From: a virus | DNA: 64,000 bases | Reading direction: 5' to 3' (one strand) | IMG/VR virus record: IMGVR_UViG_3300017788_000011 | Span: 1-64,000 of that record | In this document: one piece after another, positions 1-55,600 of the stretch | Position numbering within the stretch: the first letter of the stretch is position 1 | Layout of the letters: each line of letters begins with the position of its first letter | Notes under the pieces: generated by a model | Databases searched by the model: none | What the model was told of the DNA's origin: nothing | What the model saw: only the letters and a program-made list of their open reading frames with translations | Program-made: the position numbers and the translations under genes

Positions 1-331
1 AGATAAAAATATGTTATGGTCGGCTTGGCAAGGATTATTCGGTCGAGACGAGCAGGGCAAAAAAGGTGGTTTCATCACAGACGACCTTGACGAAATTGCA
101 AAAATGCTAATCGGCCAGGGTGCTAATGCCAACGATTTACGATCTGTAGAAGCAATATTATCTGCCTTACCAAAAGAACAGTCAGCGGCTTTGTTAAAAA
201 GAGCCAAAGAAGATCCAGCATGGAAAGAACAACCTACGGAATCTTTTGTTCAAGAAAGTGTTGCTCGTGTATCAACCGAGGGAACATCCGCTTGGTTTAG
301 AGATATGATTAATATTGCGAGTGTCAGATGA
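1..331 (+). CDS. C-terminal part of a hypothetical, probably head-associated protein (truncated by window edge)
   Basis: Frame is open to the window start; stop TGA overlaps the next ATG (ATGA); PTE-S/VQE-S motifs near the C-terminus resemble those of neighbouring genes. Confidence 0.6.
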   Translation, partial: DKNMLWSAWQGLFGRDEQGKKGGFITDDLDEIAKMLIGQGANANDLRSVEAILSALPKEQSAALLKRAKEDPAWKEQPTESFVQESVARVSTEGTSAWFRDMINIASVR

Positions 332-1443
332 GAGCCAAAGAGTTTTTAACAGAGGCCGCAGCCAAGGTTGGCAGAGATTTTCAACATCTCGAAGACCTTG
401 TATTTGTTGATGGCAGTAAAGGTGCTCAACAGGCATTAAAATATCTGGAAAGTTTTGGTCGCAGTGCTAAAAATATTTCAGTTAAATGGGACGGTAACCC
501 CACAGTGTTTTGGGGTAGAGAACCAGACGGCAGTTTTATTCTTGTAGGTAAGAATAATTGGGACAAAGAAGCACAGGGAGGTAAGGCCCGTTCACCCGAA
601 GAATTAGAACAATTTATTAACAGTAGAGGCAAAGGCGAAGATTGGCGTGCCAAGTTTGCCACAGATATGTCAGCTCTTTGGCCCATATTTGAAGCAGCCA
701 CTCCCAAAGGTTTTAGAGGTTATATATTCGGCGATCTACTTTTTCATCCTGGTAAACCTTTTACACAGGACAAAAATTCTGTAGACTTTACACCTAATCA
801 AACAACCTATCATGTTAAGACAGACAGTAGTATAGGTAAAAAAATTGTAGATGCCAAAGTTGCCGTGGCCGCACACTTAAAGTTAGACACATTTGGTCAG
901 CCTTTGCAAGAAGGTGAAGCATTTAAAGATGTCAACGATTTTAACAACACAGAATCATTGATTGTACTTGGACAGACCTATGTAACACATCAACCTAAAG
1001 TTGATACTTCACGTGTTACACAACTTGAACAGTTTGTCAAAAGACACAGTCAAGAAATTGATCAGTTTTTACAGCCGGTGGCTGGCCTCAGTGATTTAAA
1101 AAATATCATTTACACGTATATCAATAATATGAGTAGAGAGAAAAAATTAGATCAAATCAACACAGAATTTTTCAATTGGTTACAGAACAGCAAAGTATCT
1201 GCATCTAAGCAGGCAAAGATTGTTGAATTACACAAACAACTGCCCACAGCACTGCCCAGTATTTTAACTCTTGTAGAGGAAATCATGCAGGTCAAGAATG
1301 ATATAATTGCACAACTTGATCAGGCAGAAGCAGATATAACTGCATCAACTGGTGGCAAAGCCGGTGGAGAAGGTTATGTAAGTCAGCAAGACTTCATTAA
1401 ACTTGTTCCACGAGATCGTTGGACACCTTTTAGGGCAGACTAA
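328..1443 (+). CDS. DUF6267-like phage protein with KxDG nucleotidyltransferase/ligase-like motif
   Basis: HLEDLVF, SVKWDGNP, GYIFGDLLF, GGEGYV, KLVPR resemble ligase-superfamily motifs I, III, IV, V; leader MRAKEFLTE. Confidence 0.6.
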   Translation: MRAKEFLTEAAAKVGRDFQHLEDLVFVDGSKGAQQALKYLESFGRSAKNISVKWDGNPTVFWGREPDGSFILVGKNNWDKEAQGGKARSPEELEQFINSRGKGEDWRAKFATDMSALWPIFEAATPKGFRGYIFGDLLFHPGKPFTQDKNSVDFTPNQTTYHVKTDSSIGKKIVDAKVAVAAHLKLDTFGQPLQEGEAFKDVNDFNNTESLIVLGQTYVTHQPKVDTSRVTQLEQFVKRHSQEIDQFLQPVAGLSDLKNIIYTYINNMSREKKLDQINTEFFNWLQNSKVSASKQAKIVELHKQLPTALPSILTLVEEIMQVKNDIIAQLDQAEADITASTGGKAGGEGYVSQQDFIKLVPRDRWTPFRAD

Positions 1444-1444
1444 A

Positions 1445-2578
1445 ATGTTATTAAGAGAAATATTTGAAGCCGCTGGCAAAACCGCAGTTATAATTTACGG
1501 TCGTATGAATCCTCCTACTATCGGTCACAAAAGATTAATGGAAGAATTAAAGTCTGTGGCTGCTAAAAACAAAGCAGATGCTGTGGTATTTTTATCGCAT
1601 ACACAGAATAAAAAAACAGATCCGCTGACATTTGATCAAAAAGTTATGTATGCTCATCAGATGTTTCCAGATGTGAAATTTGCCGAAGGTGAAAATTCAA
1701 AGACATTTCCTTCCGCACTGCAATATCTACAGCAATCGGGATATACCAAAGTTGTACACCTTGTAGGCAGTGATAGACTAATGGGTTTCAAGGCTATCAT
1801 TGATTCTTATAACGGTAAACCAGACAAAAGCGGCACCATACCTTTTAAATTTGACGAATATGAATTTGTAAGTTTAGACAGAGATCCTGATGCAGAAGGC
1901 GCCACCGGAATGAGCGCCAGTAAAGCCAGAGCATTGGCGGTGGCTGGAGATGTAGAATCTTTTAAATTGGCCATACCTGGTGACGATACATTGACTATGG
2001 CATTGTACAGAGATGTTAGAGAAGGCATGGGTATCAAAGAAACTGTGCCTGCAGAAAGTGTAACAGAAGATGCTGCCGGTGTAGGTATTATTACTAAGCA
2101 AAACACAACCAAAGATGTAAACAAAGGTACGCTTCGTAAAATGATGAAGGCATATCATCTTATCGACAGTATGCACCGTAAATTAACTGATCTCAGTGAA
2201 GCACCGATAGATATGGATCCTACAGATCCAATGGATCCTATGATCTATGGTTACAATAAAGCCAATCCTGGTAAACTAAAGTATCGTATGTTACGGGCCA
2301 GTAAGCAATTAAAAGATCTTGCAGATCGTGCTAAAGACGCAAGTCCATTCGAATGGCAATTAATCACTAAGCAATTCAGCGAACTGATCATAAATATTGA
2401 ACAAATTAAGCACGGATTAGAAGAACTTGCCAAGGTTAGACGCAAAGGTGGTATTAAATCTCGTGGTATTGATCCTATGATCGATAGTATTGACGAAGGA
2501 TGTAAGTACGGAAAATATTACTGTTCTACTGATAAAAAATGGAAGTGTCGAACAGGTCCTAAGCAGTCAAGGAAATAA
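1445..2578 (+). CDS. HIGH-family cytidylyltransferase-like nucleotidyltransferase with C-terminal accessory modules
   Basis: GRMNPPTIGH, VGSDR, MSASKAR motifs; likely start ATG 1445 (MLLREIFE) just after upstream TAA. Confidence 0.8.
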   Translation: MLLREIFEAAGKTAVIIYGRMNPPTIGHKRLMEELKSVAAKNKADAVVFLSHTQNKKTDPLTFDQKVMYAHQMFPDVKFAEGENSKTFPSALQYLQQSGYTKVVHLVGSDRLMGFKAIIDSYNGKPDKSGTIPFKFDEYEFVSLDRDPDAEGATGMSASKARALAVAGDVESFKLAIPGDDTLTMALYRDVREGMGIKETVPAESVTEDAAGVGIITKQNTTKDVNKGTLRKMMKAYHLIDSMHRKLTDLSEAPIDMDPTDPMDPMIYGYNKANPGKLKYRMLRASKQLKDLADRAKDASPFEWQLITKQFSELIINIEQIKHGLEELAKVRRKGGIKSRGIDPMIDSIDEGCKYGKYYCSTDKKWKCRTGPKQSRK

Positions 2579-2580
2579 TC

Positions 2581-2814
2581 ATGGACGATATTGCACGTTT
2601 AAAACATCTCGCTGGTATTACTCCCTTTCAAGGATATAAGCCTGTAGAAATAGAAAATATCAGTCACACTGGTACTGAAAAACGAGAACTTGAACGTAAA
2701 CACAATATCAAACCTGGCACACCGGAATGGTTTCAACTATGGTTTAGTTTACCTAAACTAACAGGAGAACGTGCTGTTAGTGTTCCGCCCAGTTTTAGAG
2801 GACGCAAAAAATGA
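2581..2814 (+). CDS. hypothetical phage protein
   Basis: 77 aa, tightly packed; N-terminal LKHLAGI motif; IKPGTPEWFQLWF. Confidence 0.7.
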   Translation: MDDIARLKHLAGITPFQGYKPVEIENISHTGTEKRELERKHNIKPGTPEWFQLWFSLPKLTGERAVSVPPSFRGRKK

Positions 2815-2882
2815 ATCCATATCCAGTGTATCCCGAAGACGACGGTTACGATCGTCCAAAAAATCCTTATAGCCCAGTATGA
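2811..2882 (+). CDS. 23-aa microprotein MNPYPVYPEDDGYDRPKNPYSPV
   Basis: ATGA overlaps with both the upstream stop and the downstream start; fills the gap exactly. Confidence 0.6.
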   Translation: MNPYPVYPEDDGYDRPKNPYSPV

Positions 2883-3979
2883 AAGCCCACGAATTCGTCA
2901 CTGAAAAGAAGAAAAAACGTAGAAACAAATACGGTTTAGCCGCATGGGGACCGGGTCCTTACGGGGGCTACGGATATCTTGCAGGTTATAGCGGTGACAG
3001 CGGAGCACCTTCTGGAGGAGACGGGGGCGGTGTAGGGGAAGGCAAAGTAAAATTATATACAGACCCTGATTACTTTGGTGCAGAAGTAGATGACAGTGGG
3101 TTTGACAGTTTGCCGGTGGTAAACATTCCGGCCGATCAATTGGTAGGCTTTGAACCTGATGACAAAATGAATCAATCTAAAAGCAAAGCCAATGTTAAAA
3201 AGATTGTTGCTGGCTTAGAAAAAGGCGAAAAACTGCCTCCAATACTGGTTCGCAAATACAAATAAGGTTATCAAGTTTTAGATGGTCATCACAGATTCTG
3301 GGCCTACAAATTACTGAAGATAAAATCAATACCAGCACAAATTGTGCCTGCCAAAGACATAGAAGAAATATCAAAGCAAGGTGTGGCGGAAGCCTCATAC
3401 CCAGGAAATCTCGGTGTTATAGAATTAATACAATTTTTCAGAGAGCATCCTAATTTAATAACAGATTATAAAATACTTAAACAAAAAAAGGGTTCAGAAA
3501 CTGCGCTAAAATGGGCATTGTCCAAGATGCAGTTAGAATTAGAACCTGTAATTCAAGACAGTGCAATCAACGAATTAAAAACAAAAATCACAGATAACGA
3601 TATAAGACGCATTATCAAAGACAAATTAGCCATAGATGCAGAAACCGGTGAAGAGGCCATGCGCAGAGCTATAGATAAAATGACAGAATTACCCAGTACT
3701 TTATATGTAAAAACTCAGGCAGCACAATTAATGATGCTGTACAAGGCAGCAAAAATGAGTATCGGTGGGGAACATTATCGTAAATTAAGTAAATTAACTG
3801 AAAATTTTGCTGACGGGCGTAATCCTAAAGATAAGGGAGATTCTGCCAGGCACGGAATTCCTAAAAAAGCATCTATAGCGCAACTTAAAAAAATACGTAG
3901 CAGTGACACAGCAAGTCCACGTAAGAAGCAGTTAGCCCATTGGCAAATTAACATGCGTCAAGGTCGTAAAAAGAAATAA
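2879..3979 (+). pseudogene. multi-module head protein with a ParB/Srx-like domain interrupted by in-frame TAA (3263-3265)
   Basis: ORFs 2879-3265 and 3344-3979 share a frame; read-through gives LPPILVRKYK*GYQVLDGHHRFWAYKLLKIKSIPAQIV, a ParB N-terminal-like signature. Confidence 0.7.
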
Positions 3980-3982
3980 ATA
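3976..3982 (+). promoter_or_regulatory. putative late promoter core ATAAATA
   Basis: Resembles T4 late TATAAATA; recurs at 6232, 31106, 36946 (+) and 45085, 49662 (-) ahead of gene starts. Confidence 0.5.
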
Positions 3983-4019
3983 CGACATCGGGAATTAACC
4001 CGTTTTTAAAGGGACTATT

Positions 4020-4655
4020 ATGAGCTTTGAATTTAATTTTACTGCTGAGAAATTAGCACACTGCTTACATAAAAATAAAAATCCTAATGCGTGGTTCGAA
4101 GCATTAGAAAAGCATTTACCGTCATTTGAGATTGTTACTCCTTCAAGAGTAGCAGGTTTTGTAGCACAATGTCAACACGAATCTGCTGATTTTACTGTGC
4201 TAACAGAAAACTTAAATTACAGCGCAGATGCATTAAACAAACTTTTCCCCAAATACTTTATTAATGCAGGACGTGATGCACAGGAATATCATCGTCAGCC
4301 TGAGAAAATTGCCAACGTAATTTATGCAAGTCGTATGGGCAACGGAGACACAGCATCAGGCGATGGCTGGAAATTTCGCGGACGTGGAATTCTTCAAATC
4401 ACTGGTAGGTCAAACTATACCCAGTGTTCAAGAGACTTATTTCAAGACGATACTTTAGTAGAAAATCCCGAATATCTTCTTGATCCAGAATATGCTATAC
4501 TCAGTGCCTGCTGGTTCTGGCACAAAAATAATTTAAATCAATTCTGCGACAGTGGTGATGTTGTAACTCTGTCAAAGCGAATTAACGGTGGTACTATAGG
4601 ATTAGACGACCGTGTTAAGCATTGGAACATTTGTTTAGAGACCTTCGAATCATGA
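4020..4655 (+). CDS. glycoside hydrolase family 19 (chitinase-like) endolysin
   Basis: FVAQCQHES, ENLNYS, DGWKFRGRGILQITGRSNY, SACWFW, INGGTIGLDDR. Confidence 0.92.
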   Translation: MSFEFNFTAEKLAHCLHKNKNPNAWFEALEKHLPSFEIVTPSRVAGFVAQCQHESADFTVLTENLNYSADALNKLFPKYFINAGRDAQEYHRQPEKIANVIYASRMGNGDTASGDGWKFRGRGILQITGRSNYTQCSRDLFQDDTLVENPEYLLDPEYAILSACWFWHKNNLNQFCDSGDVVTLSKRINGGTIGLDDRVKHWNICLETFES

Positions 4656-5572
4656 AAATTAGAGAAATCTGTGAATCATTAATCAACGAAAAAACTGCAT
4701 CATCAGTTGATCAACTATTTGATCCCACCGCAACAGAAATCAAACAGGGGTCAACTGGTCCCATAGTTAAAGCATTTCAATGGACATTGGATCAACTTGG
4801 TTATAATCCCGGCAGCATTGACGGACATTTTGGTCCGCGTACTACTAACACAACTAAAAAATATCAAAAAGACAACGGTATTGAAGCAGACGGTGTAGTA
4901 GGTAAATCTACCTATTCTTTATTGAACACAGATTTAGATGAAAAAGGCATCGACGAATTTCCTGCAGGCATAGGATTGAAACCAAAAAAACCATCATTCA
5001 GCATAGATCCTGAAAAAAGCGGGTTCGGTATAAAAGTTCCCGAGCCTACAGATACATCAGCAATAGGTGGCGTTGAAGGCAAAGTACTGGATTGGATTTC
5101 TCAATTCGAATCTGGCGGTTATTATGATAAAATGTACGGTGGCAAACGTTATCCCGAAATTCTCGATATGACTCTACGCGAATTAGTGGAATTTCAAAAG
5201 AAACACATCAACAAATTAAGACGTAGAGGTAATAGAAATGCCACATCGGCTTCGGGTAGATATCAATTTGTCACAAAAACATTAGTGGCCACAGCCAAGG
5301 ACATGGGTCTTGATCCCGATAGTACACGGTTTTCACCTAAGACACAGGATGAGATGATTGTACATGTGTTGAAAAAATATCGAGGTCTTGATCGCTGGTT
5401 GGCGGGGAAATTACCTACCTCTGCTTTCTTAAAAAATCTTTCTCAGGAATTTGCTTCATTGCCGGACCCCGAAACTGGTGTTTCTTTTTACCAAGGTGTA
5501 GGCGATAACAAGGCAGGAACTACCACAAGCAAAGCAGTGGCACAACTTGCACAAATAAGGAAATTGGCTTAA
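4652..5572 (+). CDS. peptidoglycan-binding domain plus lysozyme-like domain (virion-associated muramidase)
   Basis: GSIDGHFGPRT...DGVVGKST PG-binding repeat; ISQFESGGYY, ASGRYQF, FSPKTQD, LSQEFASLP; ATGA overlap at 4652. Confidence 0.8.
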   Translation: MKIREICESLINEKTASSVDQLFDPTATEIKQGSTGPIVKAFQWTLDQLGYNPGSIDGHFGPRTTNTTKKYQKDNGIEADGVVGKSTYSLLNTDLDEKGIDEFPAGIGLKPKKPSFSIDPEKSGFGIKVPEPTDTSAIGGVEGKVLDWISQFESGGYYDKMYGGKRYPEILDMTLRELVEFQKKHINKLRRRGNRNATSASGRYQFVTKTLVATAKDMGLDPDSTRFSPKTQDEMIVHVLKKYRGLDRWLAGKLPTSAFLKNLSQEFASLPDPETGVSFYQGVGDNKAGTTTSKAVAQLAQIRKLA

Positions 5573-6235
5573 ATGTATATCTACGAATTACACGAGTCTA
5601 AATCATCTAAGGCACCTAAGCCAAGAAACTTTGTGGCAAAAAATGCTCCTAAGGCAGGAGCAGGTGCGCACAAAGATAAAAAGAAGGCAGCCAAACAAGG
5701 CGATGTAAAACACAAAGGTAAAGTGGCGGAAGGCTCATTAGAAGAATACGGTGATACTGCTAAGGGTCAAAAGATGTTGACCAAAGTTCAGAAACGTGCT
5801 GTAGATAGAGTAGTATCTAAGAAAGCAGATACTGATCCTAAGTATGCTAAAAAGAATCAAGACACTGCTAATCGTGCTTGGGACAGAATGACGGATGTTG
5901 ACGAAGGATTAAAAGATCCCAAGGATAATCCTTGCTGGAAGGGCTACAAGCCTGTAGGTACTAAAAAGAAGAATGGCAAAACTGTGCCTAACTGTGTGCC
6001 CAAGGAAAGTGTGAGAGAAACAGCCACTCCAGGTGCGACCTCTGCAGGCAGCGTTGCTACTGTGGTCAGTCCACATTTGGCCATAGGAAAACCTAATAAA
6101 TCCTACACTGGTAGTCCTGGAAAATCAGGTACCAAAGCACCTAATGCACCCAAAGTTAAAATGCAAAAGCCCAGCGATAATGCTTTAAATATGAAGACCA
6201 ATATTTTTGGTGAAGGCAATGCTATAAAGCGATAA
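5573..6235 (+). CDS. basic modular putative head internal protein
   Basis: Leader MYIYELHE; CWKGYKPVGTKKKNGKTVPNCVP module; VAE/VDE/VRE sites. Confidence 0.65.
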   Translation: MYIYELHESKSSKAPKPRNFVAKNAPKAGAGAHKDKKKAAKQGDVKHKGKVAEGSLEEYGDTAKGQKMLTKVQKRAVDRVVSKKADTDPKYAKKNQDTANRAWDRMTDVDEGLKDPKDNPCWKGYKPVGTKKKNGKTVPNCVPKESVRETATPGATSAGSVATVVSPHLAIGKPNKSYTGSPGKSGTKAPNAPKVKMQKPSDNALNMKTNIFGEGNAIKR

Positions 6236-6238
6236 ATA
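6232..6238 (+). promoter_or_regulatory. putative late promoter core ATAAATA
   Basis: Upstream of GGAG RBS and ATG 6262. Confidence 0.5.
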
Positions 6239-6261
6239 TAACAATACAACGGAGATTTGAA

Positions 6262-7158
6262 ATGCATGACGATCACGAAGCAATGATGGCCAGAGCCGAA
6301 CTGTACAAGGCCGCCAAATATGCGATGAAACTATTTAAAATGATTCGCGAGGGCGACGAACTTGAAGGTTGGGTATCTGCTAAAATTACCAAAGCGGCTG
6401 ACTATCTTGATTCGGTAGCGCATTACATGGAATATCATCAAGAAGTTAAACACGAATTTGAAGCATTAGATTACAAAGGTAGTCTAAGAGAAGCTCTTGA
6501 CCGTACTCTTGTAGAAGCCAAGAAAAAGGTCGAGATGAAGAAAAAACTCGAAAAGAAAAAAGCAGAAATTGACGAATCACTAAACGAAAACGATGATGCT
6601 ATCAAAGCACACGAAAAACAAGGTCGCAGAGTTAAGCGCCACAGTGACGGTTCTTATACTTGGTATGATGACAAAGATAAAATTGCCCGCAAAGTGAAAA
6701 AAGGCGGCAAGGGTGGGGAATCAGTAAAATACACACCTAAGGGTAAAAAAGAAGACGATCCGGATCTCGACGAATCCAGAGAACTTGTCAGTCCGCCAGA
6801 CGGAGCCACTGCTCCTCCCCCAAAAGGCAAAGACGGAAAGTATCCTATTGTAACTTCCGGGCCACACAAAGGCAAGCGTTGGAGTCCACAAACACCTGGT
6901 CCGACAAATCCTAATTTTAAAGAATCTAAATCTAAACCAGATTTCCTCGATGTAGACAAAGATGGTGATAAAAAAGAGCCAATGAAAAAGGCACTGAAAG
7001 ATAAAAAAGTCAAAGAAAGTGCTAAACTGGAGGTAGATCCTAAAGACAAAGATCTTGAGGTTAAAAAAAATAAAGGTAAAACCACAGTAACTTCTAAAAC
7101 TGGTCGCGTTACAACAGTAATAGACAAAGACAAAATGAAAGTAGCCTCGGGAAAATAG
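6262..7158 (+). CDS. charged modular putative head protein with EF-hand-like DxDxDG loop
   Basis: LEGWVSAKITKAADYL segment; DFLDVDKDGDKKE; repeated xxE-S sites. Confidence 0.65.
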   Translation: MHDDHEAMMARAELYKAAKYAMKLFKMIREGDELEGWVSAKITKAADYLDSVAHYMEYHQEVKHEFEALDYKGSLREALDRTLVEAKKKVEMKKKLEKKKAEIDESLNENDDAIKAHEKQGRRVKRHSDGSYTWYDDKDKIARKVKKGGKGGESVKYTPKGKKEDDPDLDESRELVSPPDGATAPPPKGKDGKYPIVTSGPHKGKRWSPQTPGPTNPNFKESKSKPDFLDVDKDGDKKEPMKKALKDKKVKESAKLEVDPKDKDLEVKKNKGKTTVTSKTGRVTTVIDKDKMKVASGK

Positions 7159-7162
7159 TATC

Positions 7163-8626
7163 ATGGACATGAAAAAATTACTATCAATTGTCGACGGTCA
7201 GGCAAAATCAACGACCACTGCATCTGCATCTGGAGATATGAAAAAGTTTATGTCTATAGTCAGCGGGGCTAAAACTACACAGGAAAAAACTGTTATCAAA
7301 GAATCTGCTATCAATTCTTATGTCAATCAAGTAAAGGAAGACATTAAAGAACAAAAACAGATCATCGATGAAGAAGTTGCTGCCAAGGCAAGACGTGTAG
7401 CAAATAAGCTCAAAGAAAAATATGGCCTCAAAAAGAAAGAGCAGAAACAAGGTTACGAAAAACAGAAAAATAAAGTTAGAGAAAATAATCAGTTAGTTGA
7501 AAAGTTTGAATATTCTTCTGGTACTAAATTAGGTGATGAAGAACTGAGGAAAATAGCCAAAGATCAGGGATGGGAAGTCGACAAAAATATAGAATTCGTT
7601 GACCCGGATTCGCCATCAGGACTAAAAGCATCATTTAAACACACACCCCACGCGATGCTGTTAGATCCCGATTGGGTACAACCTCATGGAGGTCTCGATC
7701 TGCGAGACCCAGAGGCCATAAGAAGAAGCCTTGACGCACAGATGAAAACACAAGATTGGCAGAGCAAATCTGATTTTGACAAGGCCGGATTACAAGCATT
7801 GAGGGCACAACAAATAATTGATGCTGAAAAGTATCAATCAATAATTAGAAATCCTTCTCTAAAAAGAGCACCCGCTAAAAAAGATCCTGCTGTACTGGCA
7901 CGTCAACAAGAATTAATTAAGGCTGGTGCTAAAATTAAAGCAGACGGCATTATGGGACCACAAACACAAAAAGCCGAAAAAGAATTTGGTGCTAAAGTTC
8001 CTAAAGCAGTAATGGCCAGTCAAACAAACGATCCAGGCGCAAAGCACAAATCAGGTATGCAACAGTTGATGCCGAAAATTTCTCAAGCCAAGGAACTATT
8101 AGCAAAAATGCCTGATTCTCCAGGCAAAGCCAAAGCAGGAGAACATATTGCGGCCGCCGAAGAAAATATCAATGCTGGTAATTCTTTCAAAGCATTATAT
8201 CATATTGCACAGTTTTCAAGATATGCAGGAACCACAGAAGGCCGTGTAATTGAAAGCATTAATATTGAAGCAATGAAACATTATCTCAGCCGATTAGACG
8301 AACGTGTAACTATTGGTCCAGATGGTCAGATACAAGGCGGATTTAAACCATCCAGACCAGCCGATCCTGCGGCAGCACCTGCAGATGCTCCTGTACAGGA
8401 GCCAAAGAAATCATCTGTTGAAAGATATACTCCAGGTGTAACATATCCGGCGGCTTACACAATTTCATATAACGGTAAAGAATATAAATTTGCAGGCCGA
8501 GAGAAAACAGGTCCTGGAACTGGAGAAAAAATCGTTGTAGGTGCCGGGGCAGTCGGTATTAGAGGCTTGGCTCCTACAAATGTTGAATTAGGTAATGACG
8601 GTATGTATTACATTGCTGGAAAATAA
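7163..8626 (+). CDS. modular putative virion protein with PG-binding-like motif
   Basis: DPAVLARQQELIKAGAKIKADGIMGPQT; duplicated N-terminal DMKKLLSIV/DMKKFMSIV. Confidence 0.6.
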   Translation: MDMKKLLSIVDGQAKSTTTASASGDMKKFMSIVSGAKTTQEKTVIKESAINSYVNQVKEDIKEQKQIIDEEVAAKARRVANKLKEKYGLKKKEQKQGYEKQKNKVRENNQLVEKFEYSSGTKLGDEELRKIAKDQGWEVDKNIEFVDPDSPSGLKASFKHTPHAMLLDPDWVQPHGGLDLRDPEAIRRSLDAQMKTQDWQSKSDFDKAGLQALRAQQIIDAEKYQSIIRNPSLKRAPAKKDPAVLARQQELIKAGAKIKADGIMGPQTQKAEKEFGAKVPKAVMASQTNDPGAKHKSGMQQLMPKISQAKELLAKMPDSPGKAKAGEHIAAAEENINAGNSFKALYHIAQFSRYAGTTEGRVIESINIEAMKHYLSRLDERVTIGPDGQIQGGFKPSRPADPAAAPADAPVQEPKKSSVERYTPGVTYPAAYTISYNGKEYKFAGREKTGPGTGEKIVVGAGAVGIRGLAPTNVELGNDGMYYIAGK

Positions 8627-8628
8627 AA

Positions 8629-8724
8629 ACACCTACCTTAGGACGTTATCGTTACATAGGTGTGCCCGGCTGCTGGGCAGAGCGTTATGGGAGTCGTGCC
8701 CCGGAATGGCGCACTAAAGTGAGC
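8629..8724 (+). ncRNA. candidate structured RNA (three stem-loops), family unidentified
   Basis: GC-rich intergenic segment: ACACCTA/TAGGTGT, TGCCCGG/CTGGGCA, GCGTTAT/ATGGCGC with inner GGG/CCC; strand assumed from flanking genes and G-U pairs. Confidence 0.5.
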
Positions 8725-8745
8725 ATGAACAATTAAGGATATGAC

Positions 8746-9702
8746 ATGGATATTAGATCGTTACTTGACACTCTAACACAGTTAGATACTTCCATTGAGG
8801 AAGCACCAAAACAGCGACAAGGCGGTGGTGGTAAAAGACAAAGAGATTATCAGTTAGCACAACAACAGATGGCTAATCTGGAAAAGGCCGCACAATACAC
8901 TGGCGACGATCCTATTGTTCGTCAACGTATGGGTTTACCAGCAAAATTACCGTCCATCGACCAATGGGATGGAAAAATGCCTGAACCCACAGGACAGCCC
9001 GACTGGCTGGCTAAATTAGGCAGTGGATTTAAACTTGATCGGGATGCACAGGGAAATATTGCAGGTGCAACCAGTAATGCTACCACAGCACAGCAACAGG
9101 CCGTGGCACAGAATAAAGGTTTGTCAACATCAGCAAAATTTGTTGATCAGATTCTTCCTAAAATCAAAGCAATTTTACACAAAGCAGATGGCAAAGGGGA
9201 TGGCACAGGATCTGGCAGACGTAAAACTATGGCGGCAGCACCAGGTGCTGGCGGTTATACTGGATTTGGTGGCGCAGAAGAAAGTTACGGCAGTATTGCT
9301 TCTGAATTAGTGCGTGAATTTGGTTACGACGAATTTGAAATGCCAATAGTTGAAGCAGAATTAACACCGCAAGAAGAAAAAGAACTTGCTGACTTAATGT
9401 CACAGATTTCAGATATCGAAGATCCGAGAATCCAACGTGTTCAAAAACGTTATCAAAATTATTTGAAAAATATCAAAGGTAAGGCTGCACCGGCAGCAGG
9501 TGCGGCAAAACCAGGAGCAGTATCTGCTCAAGGAGATCAAGAGTTTAGCAAAGATCTTGATACAATACTACAGTTATTACAAAAGAAAAGCGGCGGGGCC
9601 GCACAAACTCGAGCGGCAGCACCTGCGGCAGCACCGGCTGGTCCTACAACTATAACTAATCCTGCTCAGGCCAAACAGGCAGCAGCACCTGCTAAATCCT
9701 AA
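8746..9702 (+). CDS. Ala/Gly/Gln-rich putative virion internal protein
   Basis: RBS AAGGA; IEE-A and IVE-A sites; shares segments with the next gene. Confidence 0.65.
   Translation: MDIRSLLDTLTQLDTSIEEAPKQRQGGGGKRQRDYQLAQQQMANLEKAAQYTGDDPIVRQRMGLPAKLPSIDQWDGKMPEPTGQPDWLAKLGSGFKLDRDAQGNIAGATSNATTAQQQAVAQNKGLSTSAKFVDQILPKIKAILHKADGKGDGTGSGRRKTMAAAPGAGGYTGFGGAEESYGSIASELVREFGYDEFEMPIVEAELTPQEEKELADLMSQISDIEDPRIQRVQKRYQNYLKNIKGKAAPAAGAAKPGAVSAQGDQEFSKDLDTILQLLQKKSGGAAQTRAAAPAAAPAGPTTITNPAQAKQAAAPAKS
9613..9692 (+). repeat. 80-bp direct repeat, copy 1
   Basis: 79/80 identical to 10893-10972 (A9652 vs T10932). Confidence 0.95.
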
Positions 9703-9713
9703 GAGAGAAAATT

Positions 9714-11003
9714 ATGCAAAATAAAATGTTAGATACAATTCAAAGATTAAGATTAATCGAAAGCCGACAGGTAATGTTTGAAGCATTAAGTCCTGAAGAG
9801 GAAAAGCAGTTAGCAGACTTAATGGCCAAACACAAAGCCAAATTTGACGATATCGAATTTATGGCCAGTATGCCTAAAGAAATACAAGATAAAGCCGGTA
9901 AAGTGTTTACTCTACAGAAACAGGCTCCAACGGCACCTGCAGGTGATAAAGCCGCAGATGCTAAACCAGCAGCCGCAGGAGCAGATCCAAAAGTTAAAGC
10001 AGTACAAGAAAAACTCGTTGCTCTGGGATTTCAAGTGGGTAAAACTGGTGCAGATGGAAAAATGGGTCCTGCTACTATTGGCGCAATCAAAGCCTTTGAA
10101 AAATTTGCAGGCAAAACACCTACTGGAAAAATTACTCCGGAATTAGAACAACTATTAGCCAATGGCGAACAAGTTAAATCAAACAATGAAGTAGTTAAAG
10201 CACTGACAGCATTAGAGGCATTGGTTAAGAAACATTCTAAGACTCCTCAAACACAGAGCGTTGACGTATCGGATATCGACTCAATGACTGAGAGTGAATT
10301 AAGATCGTTTGTTCTCAGAAATTTAAAACATTTTACACTGTCAGAACAGATGACAATTATGTCTTTGGTATTAACCGAAGCACCGCTGCCTTCATCAGCA
10401 GCCGCGGCATTTAATCGATTTGGAGTTAATCCCCCAGGAGTATTACCTACACAGGCACAGGCAGCGGCTGCAAGATTTCCGGCAGGCACTACACCACCAG
10501 CAGGCACTACACCAGCGGCACCAGGTGCATTAGACAAATTAAAAACGTTTGGTAAAAATCTCGCGGGACGCATGACCGGAGTTAAGCCGGGATCTGCCGC
10601 ACCGGCCGGTACTGCGGCTGTAAAAGCAGGGGCCAAGGCCACTGGTAAACTGGCTCTAAGACTTATTCCTGGACTCGGGTGGGGGCTACTTGCATTTGAC
10701 ATTATTGGTGCTGTTTCGGATACACTAAAAGATTCAGGAATACCTGATGCTGATAAACAGGCCATTACAAAGAATCTCGAAATAATCAAAAAATTCTCTG
10801 CTGATAAAGATGCGGCATCATCTATGCCTGCTGATATTCAGAAAAGAATCACTGATGTGTTGAAGGCAGCAGAAACATTAGGTCCTGCACCTGCGGCAGC
10901 ACCTGCGGCAGCACCGGCTGGTCCTACAACTTTAACTAATCCTGCTCAGGCCAAACAGGCAGCAGCACCTGCGTCGGGAATGGGTAATGTTGTTGCACCA
11001 TAA
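9714..11003 (+). CDS. putative virion protein with peptidoglycan-binding domain and a hydrophobic segment
   Basis: DPKVKAVQEKLVALGF..GADGKMGPATIGAIKAFEK; LALRLIPGLGWGLLAFDII. Confidence 0.7.
   Translation: MQNKMLDTIQRLRLIESRQVMFEALSPEEEKQLADLMAKHKAKFDDIEFMASMPKEIQDKAGKVFTLQKQAPTAPAGDKAADAKPAAAGADPKVKAVQEKLVALGFQVGKTGADGKMGPATIGAIKAFEKFAGKTPTGKITPELEQLLANGEQVKSNNEVVKALTALEALVKKHSKTPQTQSVDVSDIDSMTESELRSFVLRNLKHFTLSEQMTIMSLVLTEAPLPSSAAAAFNRFGVNPPGVLPTQAQAAAARFPAGTTPPAGTTPAAPGALDKLKTFGKNLAGRMTGVKPGSAAPAGTAAVKAGAKATGKLALRLIPGLGWGLLAFDIIGAVSDTLKDSGIPDADKQAITKNLEIIKKFSADKDAASSMPADIQKRITDVLKAAETLGPAPAAAPAAAPAGPTTLTNPAQAKQAAAPASGMGNVVAP
10893..10972 (+). repeat. 80-bp direct repeat, copy 2
   Basis: 79/80 identical to 9613-9692; encodes AAAPAAAPAGPTTLTNPAQAKQAAAPA. 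Confidence 0.95.
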
Positions 11004-11005
11004 TA

Positions 11006-11326
11006 ATGTTTATCAGAGAAATAACAGAAGCCAAGCCGCAATTTTCGAACGAAGATAAACTTCGTATAACAATTCGACAAGCGGCTGATGCTCTAAACAT
11101 TAGAACTGCTAATATAGATTCGGCAGAATTCAAACAGGGCAGATTAGTGGCTATCAAACTCAAAGACGGTGGCTCTATACCTGTTCCACCAGATTGGGAT
11201 AAAAAATGGGTTAAGAATCCCAAATCTGATAAATGGGAAAAGACTGGTACCAATGAACCAGAAACTCCAAAAGATAAAAAAGATCCCAGCCTCTGGGATA
11301 AACTAACAACAAAATCTGAAAAATAA
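11006..11326 (+). CDS. hypothetical protein with capsid-targeting-like leader
   Basis: Leader MFIREITE. Confidence 0.65.
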   Translation: MFIREITEAKPQFSNEDKLRITIRQAADALNIRTANIDSAEFKQGRLVAIKLKDGGSIPVPPDWDKKWVKNPKSDKWEKTGTNEPETPKDKKDPSLWDKLTTKSEK

Positions 11327-11329
11327 TTC

Positions 11330-11358
11330 TTGACTTCTGAAATTTTGTTAAGTATAAT
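11330..11358 (+). promoter_or_regulatory. sigma70-type promoter
   Basis: TTGACT-17 nt-TATAAT upstream of AGGAG RBS. Confidence 0.8.
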
Positions 11359-11384: not shown

Positions 11385-11645
11385 ATGAGTTCAAGAACCT
11401 ACGGACCCGAAGAAAAAGCCAAACTTGAAAGAATTGTCAACGAAGGTGTACAAGTTATGTACGAAGTTGAAAGTCTTCAAGAGGGTCTTAAAGAAACTAT
11501 CAAAGCCATTGCCGACGAACTCGAAGTTAAACCGGCACTGATTACCAAAGTCATTAAAATCGCACACAAAGGAAACTGGAACCAAGTGTTCAGTGAATTT
11601 GATGATCTCGAAACATTGATCGTCACCGTTGGCAAAGACAAATAA
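11385..11645 (+). CDS. T4 DsbA-like double-stranded DNA-binding protein
   Basis: 86 aa helical; LKETIKAIADELEVKPALITKVIKIAHK resembles DsbA/GapR; precedes DNA polymerase. Confidence 0.6.
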   Translation: MSSRTYGPEEKAKLERIVNEGVQVMYEVESLQEGLKETIKAIADELEVKPALITKVIKIAHKGNWNQVFSEFDDLETLIVTVGKDK

Positions 11646-31105: not shown

Positions 31106-31139
31106 ATAAATATATGCGTACATTTGGAGTACGTATATG
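31106..31139 (+). promoter_or_regulatory. late promoter followed by RBS/start-sequestering hairpin
   Basis: ATAAATA 31106-31112; ATATGCGTAC/GTACGTATAT stem encloses GGAG and includes the start codon. Confidence 0.7.
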
Positions 31140-49676: not shown

Positions 49677-52600
49677 TTAACCACCCCTACGTAAAAATAG
49701 TGCAGGTTTAGTAATAGATTCAGTTAGTTGCTGGCCTGAATTTTGCCACATCTGTCCGACTTTTCGTGTTACAACAACTTTAGTTCCAGCAGGTATCGCC
49801 GAAGTCAATCTAATCCTACCTTCAGGAGCAGATATTGTTCCATAGTTAACTCCATCTACTGAAAACTCTGCTTCTACCTGAATAGTGTCACTTTCAAAGT
49901 CAGGTCCAACTGCTTTGTCGTATCGAACCAGCGGAGATTTTCTCAAATGACGGCCGGCAGCAAATACATCAACTTGGTTGCATTGGCCGTGTGTTAAAGG
50001 GATTGTGTCTCTGTACCAATCAGCAATCGCTGTTTTTACCGGAACAAACGGTAGTGTAAATTCTAATGTACTGCCGTCACTGACAAACTCATAAACTTCT
50101 GTGTTATCTCCGTAGGGCACTGTTTCAGAAATTCCAATATTGTTTATTACCTGACCAGAAAGGTGGACGTCCTTAACTCCAGTTCCCAACGTTCCACGTC
50201 GGATTTGCGATAGGAAGTTACCATTTTTAACAAAATATTCTACACGTTCTCCAGCAATTTCGATGACTCCGGGTTTATTTTTTGCTCTGCTTGGCTCGTC
50301 AAGCACTGCGCCATCTATAACTTCAATTACTCTGTCAAACGGACGTAGATCTGATGCTAACTGTGTGAATTTATAGTTAAGTCTGTAATAAGAATTTCTG
50401 TTTAAAATGTCTTTAAACTTAACAAAAGAAATAGGTATAGTTGATGACTTTCTATCATCAAACTGCATAACGTCTACTGTATCTGTTTGATCAATCTGTA
50501 TTGTTGGATTTAATTTAACAGTGATAGAATCTAATAAAATATAATCAACATTGGGTGTCAATAATGTTCTGTTCAACATTATCCAGGCTGCAGAAATATC
50601 AGTGACTGCCCGCTGTAGTTTCACTAATCCGCCCTTAAATTGACTAAACAAATAGTACTGTACTGTTTCTTGTACAATTGTTGAAGTAACAAATGTGTTT
50701 CTATATCTTAGAATATTTTGACTGTTATGATTGTAAAAACTCAACACTTCAATAGTATCACCGTAGGCAAGTAACGAAGAATTTTTTATCTTCAAGTAAA
50801 CGTTGCCTGGATTAGTTCCTGTTACTTCGTAATCTAAATCCTTGTTAATGATAATTGTAACTATATCGCCTACACTGACTGCGGTAACATTCATAGTTAC
50901 TCGATTTAGACCAAAGTCAACTGAGAAGTCAATACCATAATCTTTTTTGTCCCCGTTGACAAACACAGAAATTGTTGTAGGATCAAACGAGAACGGAGCA
51001 TACTTTTGACTTTCAATCCTATAAGAATAGTTGTCAGCGGTTATGGTAAATTCATATGAATCTGGGCCTTTTAATACTGTGTTACCTTTTTTAACTAAAA
51101 TTTTACCGTCATAAGGTAAAGACTCTCCCATGGGATTAGTTAATAGATAATCCATCAATGGTGGAACATAACGAATTTCCTGCAGAGAAGCAATAGAAAT
51201 TTCTTGGTCTGGGCCGTCATAGACCACATACTTGAGCACAGAGTTTGCTGCCGGTAGCACTATAAATCTAATACCCAATAGGCCTTCTGTAGCATAAGAA
51301 CTATCGGTTTCAAAAATTTCTGCGTTGTATTGCACACCATCAACAATCACCAACACGTTTTGTGTGTCAGTGTATGGTGCTTGAGTAATAAACTCTCGAG
51401 TTGATCCATCACCGATAAAGAAGTTATTATCATAGATAGATAGTCCGCTGAAATCAAAACTCCAAATACTGATAATAGATCCTTCCGGAGGAACTGTTAA
51501 AAATGTGATAGTACTATCGTAGAAATTGATATTATAATCTTGACCTAATTTTAATAGATCGTTGTCAAGTTTAACCATCACTGAGTTTTCAGTCGTTGGT
51601 TTTTGACCGATTAAAAATCTAAATGATACACCATCAGCATTGATAGTCTTTAATATAATTTTGCTGTTGGCCACAGACACATTATCCTGTACCTTTATAG
51701 ACAGTGTGTCAAAAACATGACCTGGCACTATTTCTTCAGGAGCATGACTGGTATTTGGTGTAACAAATCCATCACCGTCTAAAGAAATATCCGATGGACT
51801 AAAACCCGAAGCAGTATTGTAGGCAAGGTCTCCGCCCGACAATTGTGTATCATAACTGGTTTCTGATGGCAATCTACTACCATCTGACGTGGTCTTTCTA
51901 AAAATTATTTCATCGCCGTTGTTAATTTCTAACGGAGGATTGTCAGTTAAGTTAGGCAGAACAAATGTTTTTGTAATACCATCACAGACTATGGAAGACA
52001 TTACTGCTTCGATATTGGTTTGATCTTCAGTGCCAAAATTAGGATCATCTAATCGTTGACCGTTTTTATATATGTTTAAAACTACGCCTGCGGCAGGAGT
52101 GTATGGTAAAGTAAACTCGTAGGTACTGTCATCGACTGTGACTATGTAGTCATCAAAAGTTTCATCATAGTCATCCCATTGTTCTGATTCCCAAGCATCA
52201 GAATCGAATCCTCCAAGCAGTGTTAATGGAATAGATGTAACTTCAACGCCACCATAATCAACTCCCTTCATTAACTGACCTAAATCCTTGCCGAGTTTTC
52301 CAGGGGCTGTTTGATATGCGTGATAAATTCTGTCGGCAGCAGACATGAAGTTAAGATCAATTTTATATGAAACTTCAATAGTTGCACCAGTCGCCGGTGC
52401 AATTTCAAACTGCACTACTCCGTATTTCTTAGTGTAGTTACCCGAAGAATCTGTTTTATTGAAAACTGCATAATCAGTTTTTAATACTGCGATGCCATTA
52501 ATTTTTACTGTGTACGAATCTTGTGTTAAATCAATTGGCCAGATCAATGCAAACTGTACTCGATTTCCAAATCCTGAGAATTCTTCAACTTTATTAACTT

Positions 52601-55600
52601 CTACAAAATCGTATGAAGAAGTAATTCTATCAAACTTTAATCCTATGGTATTAGATCTAATAACATCATTTTCTATAACAGCAGAAACTCTTGCCGAAAC
52701 ACCGTCTTCTCTGAGGCCGCCATCTAATATGATTGTAGGAGCAGACACATATCCAGAGCCCGGATTTGTTATTTCAATTTTAAACACTCTACCGCTGGAA
52801 ATGTAGGCCTTTGCTGTGGCCCCTTGACCAAATCCGCCTTCAAATCTAACAATAGGAGCACTGATATAACCCGATCCGCCGTCTGTGATAACTATATCTT
52901 TGATATAAAATCCATAATTTTCAAACCACGATCTCCAAGGATATTCTAAGATCACGTTAGACGAAGAAATTAATTCACCTGTTGAAGATACCTTTACATC
53001 AACAGGTTGTGCTGATTTGTTTTCTACATAAGAAGGTAAATCAAAATCTGTTACAGCACTTTGAGTATTGTCAAAGGATTCGTAAAGGCTGATATATTCA
53101 CGAATCTGTGTTCTAAACGGTTTAACTTCTTCAACATAACCTTGATATGCTTCAAGACTGCTGGTCTTGTATGTTGGTGGCTGATCGAGTTCGCCGAGGT
53201 TATGTATTGCTGTGACTAAACTGGTTTTAAACACCCAATCAACTAAGGTCTGTTCGCTTAGTACATATCTAACTGAGGTAAAAAACAAATTGTTATATTC
53301 TTTACGTAGATCACTGATTAAAATCTCGTCTCGTATTGTTTCAAGAATAATTCGTAATTCAATGGCAGCAAATAAGTCATAACCTTCAACGTCATACAAA
53401 CTACTGCCATATCCAATATTACCGTCGGCAAAATCATAAAGATTAGTATTAAACTGAATCGTTCCGCTTTGTCTGCCAACCACCTGATAACTTTGTGTAT
53501 AATCAAAGGACTCAGATTCCTGATATTTTTTCAACAACAACCAGCCACCTGACCCAACAGACTTAACTCTGACTACCTGATCAATATTTGTATCTAAGAA
53601 AGTTAATTCATAAGTGTTGTTTACTTGATAATCAGGTTTGGTAAATTGATTGTATCCATCCGCATACCAATCGGCATAACTCCAGAATTTAGTAACATCA
53701 AATCTCTGTGTTTGAATTCTATTCCACAGCCTGTTTTCTTTATCCCATGTATAAAGACTCCATTTACCTGTGGTTGTTGAATCAATCTTAACTAAAACTG
53801 TAAATGGTCTTGCAGTTAATGTGGGATTAGTATAATTTTTTCCTCGGCGTCTAATGATAACATCGGTTACTCTTCCCTGTACATCAATCTCTGTTTTTAA
53901 CACAGCACCGGAGCCGCCTTCATCAACTATATCTATTCTCGGTGCAATTTTATAACCGCTACCAGGATTTAAAATAGTAATTCTAAAAAATCTTCCGTTA
54001 CGTAGCTCAACTGCGAATTTTGCAGTTTCTACATTTGATGTACCAACGAATCTCAGTTCTTCGTATGAATCTACAGCAACGTCATACTTGCCGTCTTTTT
54101 CAACAGGCACCGGATCAAACTGCTGTAGTCTTTCAAGATTAAAGTTATCGGTGATTAATTTGTTGATCAACACTCTGTTTAATCGTTCAACAAATTGTTT
54201 TGTTGCTTCTATTCTATTGATAAACATTCCCTGACGAGGAACATTTAGAATACCATATCTTAATTTTTTAGGTAAATCAGGATCGGGAACAATATTATTA
54301 TTTTGATCAAGACCAACAAGACTGTCAAACCACTTAGATTCTATGTACTTAGGTATTTCAAAGTTGTTAACACCTTCAGTAATTAATTGATACTGGTTAT
54401 GAATATTCAAATCAGTTTTATCAATACCCCAATATCGGATGTTAGCATTGATCTGTTTGTCAATTAAAATGTCTCCGCAATTTATAAAGGATACTGCGTT
54501 AGGAGCAATGAAATTAATAAATTTGTAACCTTGTGCTCGCGGATCGGCAATTAAATTAGCAACGTTCAATGCACTTAATGTTCTACCGTTCACTGATGGA
54601 ACCAATACTTTATTTTTTACCCAGAAATAATACGTTGGTCTAAATGATTGAGATATTACATCATATCGTTGTTCTACAGAATAGACTGCGTCACCGTAAC
54701 GACTCAGTCCACTGACACCCTCTGTTAGGCCTTCTTCGGTATCTGCTAAACTATCCCACACACTTGGTAGGTACGGAGACTCTACCCATTCATAAATGTC
54801 AATGCTGGCTCCATCGACTAATCTATTCCATACGTTTGCTCGATATAACAAATCTCCTTGATAAGGATTATAAAATCTTGCGTTTGTTAAATCCCACCAC
54901 AATTTTCCAACTTGTTTAACATCCCATGCTACAGTGGTATCGACCTGTTGGTCTGTTGTTCCAACATCATAAACTGCGGGGTCAAAATAAGTCTTATATG
55001 CTAATTCTTGCTCTGCAATTCCTGGTAACTTTCCTCGTAACACATCAACAAAGTCTATATTTCTAACTTTTTGATTTGTCACTGTGTTGTAAAGAAATGC
55101 AGAAACAAACTTTTCAGAATTAACTACTGGAGATTGTCGACTGGTTACTTCGTATGTCTTCTTGTTTTTTGGTCTTTCAAAGAACAACAGTTTTCCAACT
55201 CGACGATTATCAATGTTAAAATATTTGGCATTAAAAATTACAGTATCACGAGTAAATGCAATTTTTTCTCCAAGATCGCTGTTGGCACTCTCAGGAACGT
55301 CAAACGATTCGCCGTAAATAAATCTGTCAGCATATCTGTCAAAAACATAGACTCTGCCTGCGTCCTTGGTAGTAGTTTTAAAATTCAAACTCTGTCTGTC
55401 AAATGTAGTCGGGCGAGCGTTTGCCTCAGACTGTGTATCTGTTGCGTAAATCGAATTATATAAATCATTAGAGTCTTCTAACAAATTACCGTATTTGTCA
55501 AATGTAGTATATACATATTGATCTCCAAATTTTGCTGTGATAGCAACGCTGGTGGCATCGTTATTAAATTTCACTCTATATCCAAAGTTTTCATTTGGTT

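Follow-up and report, generated by a model that had tools for sequence, protein, structure and literature searches.

Proteins that bacteriophage T4 loads into its prohead carry an N-terminal capsid targeting sequence, MKTYQEFIAE, which is removed by a single cut after its last Glu (PMC8442874). T4 propeptides are described as 10-19 residues long, residues 4 and 7 serving targeting and residues 8 and 10 serving processing, and an Asp at position 10 blocks cutting and leaves loading unaffected (PMC9026906). T-even phages are reported to encode internal proteins at two hypervariable loci with more than 30 variants (Repoila 1994 and Comeau 2007, cited in PMC2839356). Here, we investigated a block of genes (g2-g14, positions 328-11326) in a 64,000-nucleotide stretch of viral DNA (called the window), the first 64 kb of the 131,485-bp contig IMGVR_UViG_3300017788_000011 (CheckV completeness 37%); positions refer to the window unless given as contig positions. 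With a probability of roughly 65%, we read this block as a T4-type head-cargo system with protease-delimited modules. The observations behind this reading are leaders at the N-termini of six open reading frames (ORFs), a prohead protease gene on the contig, enrichment of a hydrophobic-x-Glu motif, module shuffling at that motif and homology to cyanophage virion proteins.

In the proposed mechanism, the leaders would act like the T4 capsid targeting sequence and bring proteins into the prohead scaffolding core, and the phage's gp21-type protease would cut after the leader Glu. The products of g3, g5/6, g9, g10 and probably g11-g13 would be chains of modules whose hydrophobic-x-Glu|small junctions are cut by the same protease, releasing enzymes (an NMNAT-like nucleotidyltransferase and one with a ParB-like domain) as well as numerous small basic peptides. 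Like T4 internal proteins, the basic pieces would remain associated with the packaged DNA.

Comparison with described systems

The T4 internal proteins IPI-III and Alt resemble the system described here in the gp21-family protease, the head gene order, the basic cargo and the enzyme class (Alt as compared with nucleotidyltransferases), and the leaders MRAKEFLTE and MKAHEFVTE have the EF[ILV]xE end of the T4 targeting sequence. Compared with T4, the leaders are slightly shorter (8-9 residues) and the set of cargo proteins is far bigger. According to PMC8442874, T4 internal proteins are cut once, whereas many cargo genes here are, as read from their sequence, module chains with internal sites. 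The T-even loci, as far as they are described in the source cited above, share with the block a fixed position, a variable content and genes that have only the leader in common; they differ in that shuffling here also occurs within genes, at protease-site junctions, and in that a DUF6267 protein and a cytidylyltransferase form a conserved locus head.

The inner-body proteins of phiKZ, 201phi2-1 and SPN3US are likewise numerous head-internal proteins of giant phages with multiple cuts after Glu and redundant sites (PMC5694885, PMC9026906). The phiKZ-type proteases, however, are described as having S/A/G or A at P3 and propeptides of >100 residues (PMC5694885), whereas P3 is hydrophobic here as in T4, the leaders, longer N-terminal segments included, span 8-19 residues and the pieces between sites look like products, not waste. 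Processing of the phiKZ type was rejected on the hydrophobic P3 at conserved sites and the short leaders. Two further comparisons are analogies, not homologies: viral polyproteins, in which a virus-encoded protease turns one product into several proteins at a fixed motif, and the cargo-loading peptides of encapsulins, short peptides that address cargo to an HK97-fold shell. Both ideas would be combined here inside the prohead of a tailed phage.

A shared leader opens six genes of the block

The pattern M-x(2-3)-E-[FIL]-x(1-2)-E opens six ORFs within 328-11326, and all six leaders quoted in an earlier sequence-only reading were found at the first Met of their ORF. The genes of the block are:

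g2, 328..1443, plus strand: leader MRAKEFLTE (328-354) and DUF6267 ligase-like nucleotidyltransferase with a KWDG motif (PF19782, 4e-27)
g3, 1445..2578, plus strand: leader MLLREIFE (1445-1468), cytidylyltransferase/NMNAT-like domain 1469-2065, variable linker 2066-2200, conserved helical domain 2201-2497, Cys-rich basic tail 2498-2575
g4, 2581..2814, plus strand: small conserved protein, start MDDIARLKHLAGI, no E-ended leader
g5+g6, 2879..3979, plus strand: one gene with an in-frame TAA at 3263-3265; leader MKAHEFVTE (2879-2905), Lys/Gly-rich spacer to VGE54 2906-3040, ParB_N-like module 3041-3391, middle 3392-3802, basic C-terminal module NFADGRNP... 3803-3976
g7, 4020..4655, plus strand: glycoside hydrolase family 19 (GH19)-type, endolysin-like, without leader (PF00182 3.1e-6; phrog_181 7e-77)
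g8, 4652..5572, plus strand: leader MKIREICE (4652-4675), PG_binding_1 (PF01471, 5e-16), lysozyme-like C-terminal part
g9, 5573..6235, plus strand: leader MYIYELHE (5573-5596), basic module A 5597-5731, module B 5732-5905, Cys-pair module C 5906-6019, module D 6020-6232
g10, 6262..7158, plus strand: basic protein with 7 motif sites; module 6925-7017 (SKSKPDFLDVDKDGDKKEPMKK...)
g11, 7163..8626, plus strand: basic protein, N-terminus MDMKKLLSIVDG repeated once, no short leader
g12, 8746..9702, plus strand: 19-residue acidic N-terminal segment 8746-8802 ending IEE|A; IVE|A at residue 203
g13, 9714..11003, plus strand: N-terminal segment 9714-9761 ending LIE|S; PG_binding_1 (PF01471, 7e-10)
g14, 11006..11326, plus strand: leader MFIREITE (11006-11029) and a 98-residue basic protein

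Outside the window, near the head genes, a 324-residue ORF that starts at contig position 77688 opens with a seventh leader, MLLRELFE. The leaders are 8-9 residues long and of two sub-types, and all seven end in [FILVCHT]xE patterns in which P1 is Glu and either P3 or P4 is hydrophobic. They are acidic; the block proteins are basic (isoelectric point, pI, 9-10). All six leader genes fall within a run of 13 consecutive genes (hypergeometric 3.5e-7). The picture of a leader-marked block drawn in the sequence-only reading thus stands for these six genes and fails for g7, which has no leader, and for g10-g13, which lack the short form.

Related stretches were collected from viral contigs, 283 for g9 and at least 538 for g10, and the best 80 of each were kept (160 loci). 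In these loci the leader occurs in 247 of 3217 plus-strand first-Met ORFs; the minus strand gave 1 of 2240. Of the 120 best DUF6267 homologues, 119 carry it, and MxLxELFE was found by inspection on 118 of the 120 best cytidylyltransferase homologues; the DUF6267 proteins of the cyanophages P-HM2 and S-WAM1 and the cytidylyltransferase of P-HM2 begin directly with the domain. The leader is a portable add-on across protein families. Since the leader codons and the upstream DNA differ among copies, conservation is at the protein level, and a role as mRNA- or DNA-level signal was rejected; a role as secretion signal was rejected as well, an N-terminal hydrophobic stretch being absent. In AlphaFold2 (AF2) models the leader is of low confidence, with a predicted local distance difference test score (pLDDT) <50 for g2 residues 1-16 and averaging 54 for g3 residues 1-10.

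N-termini of T4 proteins fit the same pattern in the record NC_000866 (gp22 MLKEQLIAE|A, gp24 MAKINELLRE|S, Alt MELITELFDE|D and also gp67). OM43 phage Melnitz carries MKKFSEIIE|A, MKKFSELTSE, MKNFKNHIAE and similar N-termini on five adjoining ORFs.

Hydrophobic-x-Glu sites are enriched inside the putative cargo genes

Site enrichment was determined as observed sites versus within-protein shuffles for five motif definitions, the block being g2-g14. The block contains 36 sites of the form [LIVM].E[AGSTDN] as compared with 16.2±3.8 after shuffling (z 5.2) and 30 of the form [LIVMF].E[AGS] as compared with 11.2±3.1 (z 6.0, about 2.7-fold), and z exceeded 4 for all five definitions. The 107 other genes showed no enrichment (111 sites, 109 expected, z 0.2); the head-core genes g87, g89 and g91 had 15 sites with 5.7 expected (z 4.2). 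The comparison with non-cargo genes, proposed beforehand as a check, therefore came out in favor of the block (z 5-6 versus 0.2). Ranked by gene, the top four of 126 were g10 (first, with 7 sites and 0.91 expected), the scaffold-like protein, g9 and g3. Applied to T4, the same regular expression recovers the end of the 65-residue gp23 propeptide (E65), gp24 E10 and 10 gp22 scaffold sites, the cleavage facts behind this control being those given in PMC5694885.

A reading by chance or composition, i.e. short Glu-rich motifs turning up in Lys/Glu-rich low-complexity proteins, has in its favor that the motif is short, that g9-g13 are compositionally biased and that the set of small residues first used was wide. 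Composition-keeping shuffles nevertheless leave z at 5-6, the minus-strand control gave 1/2240, sites are conserved column by column in 67-89 of 97 homologues, and module boundaries match sites in other contigs. Chance was rejected on the shuffle, minus-strand and homologue controls and is very improbable.

All twelve internal sites listed in the sequence-only reading are present in the sequence. Comparison with relatives, which left out g10 85, g10 171 and g13 222, supported nine of the twelve: the g3 207 region, g3 252, g3 351, g5 54, VAE-A of g5/6, LTE-N of g6, g9 111, g9 149 and g12 203. In 97 aligned cytidylyltransferases, the g3 sites at residues 8, 252 and 351 are kept in 80, 89 and 67 sequences, respectively. 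The AF2 model of g3 is folded at residues 11-200 and 275-334, with pLDDT <50 at 201-270 and 336-351; conserved sites fall in such low-confidence stretches between folded parts and unconserved ones in the fold.

The proposal that the leader genes encode cargo polyproteins holds in part. Multi-part chains with motif junctions are predicted for g3, g5/6, g9 and g10, but three of the six leader genes (g2, g8 and g14) are not polyproteins and consist of a leader and a single protein. For g2 this follows from the DUF6267 family, in which only the leader site is conserved at a boundary; the sole motif site in g8 is the leader end. The description of g3 as a string of unrelated modules had to be replaced by a multi-part architecture conserved throughout the family.

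Modules are shuffled among related loci at the motif

Piecewise matches to relatives start at few places: the starts of high-scoring segment pairs cluster on g9 at residues 51, 103-111 and 144-149, the g9 motif sites being at residues 8, 53, 111 and 149, and on g10 at 218-224. Each of four small modules turns up in 34-85 different protein contexts, counted after flank-based duplicate removal. For three of the four, hydrophobic-x-Glu stands just before the module in 66-91% of its contexts (baseline 1.3%; [LIVMF]xE frequency 0.0127 per position). The counts per module, with the g3 tail added, are:

g9 module C (GLKDPKDNPCWKGY...VPNCVPKE): 67 contexts; [LIVMF]xE before it in 44 and after it in 21
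g9 module D: 34 contexts; [LIVMF]xE before it in 31
g6 C-terminal module: 44 contexts; [LIVMF]xE before it in 34, one of them a stand-alone MKSFKSFLDE|NFMDG...
g10 module 222-252: 85 contexts; exact-register motif before it in 19 and after it in 25
g3 tail: 11 contexts; exact-register motif before it in 1

Module C occurs at positions 5 to 1218 of ORFs 124 to 1275 residues long, many of which end right behind it; a literature search on its PCWKGY/VPNCV motif returned nothing but one unrelated paper. In a second count of module D (32 contexts), 19 small ORFs place it directly behind a leader (e.g. MKISELFE|TATAG...), and in 10 of the 13 others it follows an internal site. Judged by these contexts, an internal junction appears equivalent to a leader end.

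Two natural cases point the same way. A contig from an aquatic metagenome lacks 5728-5901 (174 nt, in frame, 58 codons), i.e. module B, between VAE|G and VDE|G. In the related locus L082, a single ORF of 1193 residues fuses a cytidylyltransferase, DUF5661, the NFADG module, DUF6934, a ParB-like domain and a 5'-nucleotidase; motif sites separate these domains, and the same ParB-like module follows ISE|AKVKLY there and VGE|GKVKLY in the window. The comparison of module order with related phages, which the sequence-only reading had called for, thus bears out the shuffling: modules recur in other proteins, bounded by hydrophobic-x-Glu.

At the level of the locus, 80 of the 160 related loci share the downstream neighbours of the block (the dsbA-like gene, a small membrane protein and the polymerase), with differing cargo. 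The conserved order is a g1-like gene, leader-DUF6267, leader-cytidylyltransferase, a small MDELxQIKRLAGI protein, two to five variable leader proteins and then g10-like, g11-like and g12/13-like genes. This is probably a hypervariable locus for head cargo, i.e. internal or ejection proteins. No match to the block was obtained by megablast against phage records, and in Sinorhizobium phage Phosso, the closest named relative by polymerase, the region upstream of the dsbA-polymerase genes contains no block of this kind.

A gp21-family protease and a T4-type head module lie on the same contig

Beyond the window, the contig carries a head module in T4 order: portal, two small ORFs, an acidic protein, the protease, a scaffold-like protein and the major capsid protein.

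Prohead protease, contig 85373-86005: gp21-family, 210 residues

The protease matches PF03420 at 1.1e-26, above the cut-off, and phrog_207, and itself bears the motif near either end (VLE|S, residue 19; LKE|S, residue 200 of 210). The scaffold-like proteins are acidic, with pI values of 4.1 and 5.7. With this module, and with leaders that share the T4 pattern, the likeness to T4 capsid targeting claimed from the window was borne out.

The major capsid protein (389 residues) has the motif sites LLE|S, LLE|G and LVE|T within its first 40 residues. Its residue 42 aligns with T4 gp23 residue 77, and from this alignment and the motif sites we predict a maturation cut at LVE40|T41. Residues 129-164 of g9 are 51% identical to residues 22-56 of the capsid protein (E 0.006). 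The first ~15 residues of module D (6020-6064) read TATPGATSAGSVATV, or TATAGATSAGNIATV in relatives, and resemble the predicted mature N-terminus of the capsid protein, TATAGATSAGNVATL (contig 87238-87285); hydrophobic-x-Glu precedes both.

Two side observations concern the head module. Directly after the portal, in the position of T4 gene 67, a 79-residue ORF (contig 83597-83836) starts MILRELFYYD, which is leader-like with Tyr in place of the expected Glu. A second short motif, L-x-R/K-[IL]-x-x-[LI]-A-G-[LIV], closes the scaffold-like protein (contig 87073-87102, ..IIDIRRLAGL*), opens the g4 family (2581-2620) and, in related loci, stands at the end of 12 long ORFs (..RIRELAGLR*). Head assembly may use it as a second docking motif.

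Homologues in cyanophage virions

NMNAT/cytidylyltransferase-like proteins were identified through mass spectrometry in virions of S-CREM2 and S-SCSM1, as reported in PMC10665884 and PMC9602691. The N-termini of these two enzymes, read from the records, are MKNFSSFLTE|A and MKSFLQFLKE|A. In S-SCSM1 the enzyme lies in a counterpart locus, in which ORF89-93 around it are annotated as virion proteins. The NMNAT-like virion proteins of S-CREM2, S-SCSM1, S-SZBM1 and S-CBWM1 are homologous to g3 (tblastn, 29-38% identity), with leader-like N-termini and a counterpart locus; in the passages of the cyanophage papers drawn on here, the presence of these enzymes is not connected with a targeting leader or with protease sites. 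A full-text literature search for capsid targeting sequence together with cyanophage returned the T4 review alone, and a search for the enzyme in cyanophage virions under a variant spelling of its name returned no paper.

Weighing the evidence

Several points weigh against the head-cargo reading, beginning with its central steps: we infer loading, cutting, retention in the head and ejection by analogy with T4. The excess of leaders over internal Met within the contig alone is modest (6 of 126 called gene starts versus 8 of 654 internal Met with a loose regular expression, Fisher p 0.016), and the short leader is absent from g4 as well as from g10-g13. The motif over-predicts: the g3 sites at 81 and 193, kept in only 2 and 4 of the 97 homologues, lie inside the Rossmann domain and are chance hits, and the hits at g2 122/195 are in the folded core or unconserved. 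Amphipathic helices can enrich hydrophobic-x-Glu without any protease. Because many module contexts share ancestry, the context counts are not independent events. As for the virion data, abundant proteins may co-purify with virions, a caution given by the authors themselves (PMC10665884), and the supplement of that paper was searched and contains no peptide-level data.

Two of the adverse points bear directly on cutting. The related contig L007 has leader-like N-termini in which the closing Glu is missing (MLLRELLNQD, MRADEFINRD, MNIREFAKP), and for the g10 module and the g3 tail the Glu is often 1-2 residues out of register. Both would fit leaders and junctions that are uncut docking or linker elements, with intact multi-module chains entering the head or binding the scaffold and the repeated hydrophobic-x-Glu being a binding helix or just a module end. 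Targeting and processing are also separable in T4, as the Asp at position 10 illustrates (PMC9026906), and the cuts here are predictions. We regard uncut chains as unlikely, however, given that the P1 Glu is nearly constant in modules C and D and the g6 C-terminal module, with P1' fixed per module (G, T/S/A and N), that the motif marks known T4 cut sites as well as both ends of the protease and the capsid-protein propeptide here, and that the conserved g3 sites lie in disordered linkers.

The position and promoters of the block raise another alternative. The T4 late-promoter octamer TATAAATA occurs 0 times in the window (5.4 expected), and the heptamer ATAAATA was used instead. The contig has 21 copies of it, and 17 of these are followed within 60 nt by a gene start on the same strand, mostly that of a structural gene; copies elsewhere include those at 31106 and 36946. 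Within the block, ATAAATA is found upstream of g7 and g10 only:

3976..3982, plus strand: ATAAATA, late-promoter-like, 38 nt upstream of g7
6232..6238, plus strand: ATAAATA, late-promoter-like, 24 nt upstream of g10

For g2-g6, the nearest 60 nt contain no ATAAATA, which also counts against head cargo and would suit ordinary intracellular proteins (early or host-takeover) that stay outside the virion and share an N-terminus for turnover, translation efficiency or a cytoplasmic complex. Such proteins would likewise fit a block that adjoins replication genes (the dsbA-like regulator and DNA polymerase) and not head genes, and ligase-like, NMNAT-like and ParB-like enzymes are also plausible in the cytoplasm. 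T4 internal-protein genes, however, also lie apart from head genes, and here the seventh leader gene adjoins the head module. The unconserved leader DNA speaks against an mRNA signal and the missing hydrophobic stretch against secretion. Leader-bearing homologues were detected in purified cyanophage virions, and S-SCSM1 ORF89-93 carry the virion annotation given above. A purely intracellular role is improbable on this evidence, and head cargo remains the preferred reading.

Significance

A wider reading joins these results and is tentative, being less likely than not: aquatic T4-core phages would share a widespread combinatorial cargo-polyprotein system in which junctions are recombination joints, the RNA-ligase-like and NMNAT-like enzymes pre-empt host defences and module D copies the capsid arm. 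Small basic modules and whole enzymes could then be shuffled, split or fused (as in the 1193-residue chain of L082) and still function, since the prohead protease would free the modules again, a trick of gene architecture in which a protease site doubles as a shuffling joint. The conserved enzymes at the locus head would be delivered with the DNA against defences that cut tRNA or deplete NAD+, and module D, as a copy of the mature N-terminal arm of the capsid protein, may fill capsid-protein binding sites inside the shell. If so, a simple sequence rule would explain the recurrent metabolic-looking enzymes in cyanophage virion proteomes, the T4 internal-protein idea would extend from a few coliphage proteins to thousands of environmental proteins, and the set of ejected proteins of uncultured phages might be predicted from sequence.

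The phage and its putative cargo genes

The family-B DNA polymerase shares 50% identity with its Phosso counterpart and 44-46% with those of Atu_ph07 and GAP32-type giant phages. Relatives with 80-83% identical polymerases are found on contigs of up to 383 kb. The candidate source run is a freshwater metagenome, and near relatives come from wastewater and aquatic metagenomes. The window probably derives from an uncultured T4-core phage of ~350 kb from freshwater.

The enzymes at the locus head belong to large families, with 1619 relatives of g2 and 4059 of g3 at E<=1e-5. In g2, K53-W-D-G56 (motif I, KxDG) is invariant in 48 sequences. Its AF2 model (pLDDT 87.2) gave no Foldseek match at E<=1e-3, and phmmer found no match for g2 among PDB sequences; with VIA-align, 7 of the top 8 matches were RNA/DNA ligases, but since Z was just 4.5-6.1 (root-mean-square deviation 3.4-6.0) the assignment of a ligase fold is only suggestive. 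A literature search found no paper on DUF6267/PF19782. The g3 product is a predicted NMNAT-like cytidylyltransferase: it matches phrog_3041 (5.7e-50) and, just below the cut-off of 21, Pfam PF01467 (20.4 bits), and TIGH at residues 25-28 corresponds to the (H/T)xGH motif, with G27 and H28 invariant. Homologues of g4 occupy the same place behind the cytidylyltransferase in 53 of the 160 related loci. The conserved gene 5' of DUF6267 (g1-like) is partial at 11-331 and present at L056 47-901; it matched no Pfam family and no PDB sequence.

The ORFs 2879-3265 and 3344-3979 are treated as one gene, g5+g6, because the TAA falls in frame within the ParB_N-like domain (..ILVRKYK*GYQVLDGHHR..). The ParB_N match spans the TAA and includes 'LDGHHR' (PF02195, 3.4e-5, 24.2 bits, cut-off 26.3). 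Contigs of the probable source run are interrupted between 3066 and 3363, with a doubling of depth and with variants at 3176/3214/3218; the TAA may belong to a minor variant.

Relatives of g7 begin MSFEFEF and are likewise leaderless. Residues 118-303 of g8 match the phrog_90 endolysin, with a weak match to lambda lysozyme (E 0.2). The g10 module recurs in S-SCSM1 ORF92 (KPDFLDLDKDGNKKEPMKKA), annotated as a virion protein, and has a locus counterpart at L012 6943-8505. It contains D-x-D-x-D-G-x-x-x-E, which we take to resemble a calcium-binding loop of the Excalibur/EF-hand type. The g11 N-terminus is conserved in relatives, with weak PG-binding-like matches, and in a contig from an aquatic metagenome g11 7423-8052 is replaced by 114 other letters. 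Relatives of g12 have N-termini of the form MDIRSIL...LSE|A, IAE|A or LTE|A. The C-termini of g12 and g13 are 96% identical over 27 residues, and the module after g12 203 recurs after a site in g13; g13 also has a single borderline hydrophobic segment at residues 313-331 (Kyte-Doolittle 1.63). Relatives of g14 were found in 0 of the 160 related loci.

In a Pfam search of 12 cargo-locus ORFs of relatives, only a ferritin-like domain was found, on a leaderless ORF; the cargo locus of relatives holds a leaderless ferritin/Dps-like gene (L056 8749-9183, L068 8749-9183, L102 9849-10283) and a lipoprotein-like gene. Just upstream of the dsbA-like gene at 11385, a perfect sigma-70-type promoter (11330-11358; TTGACT, 17 nt, TATAAT) lies where the cargo block gives way to the replication genes. 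Further along the window, at 49677-63410 on the minus strand, a single ORF of 4577 residues lies amid tail-fibre-like genes.

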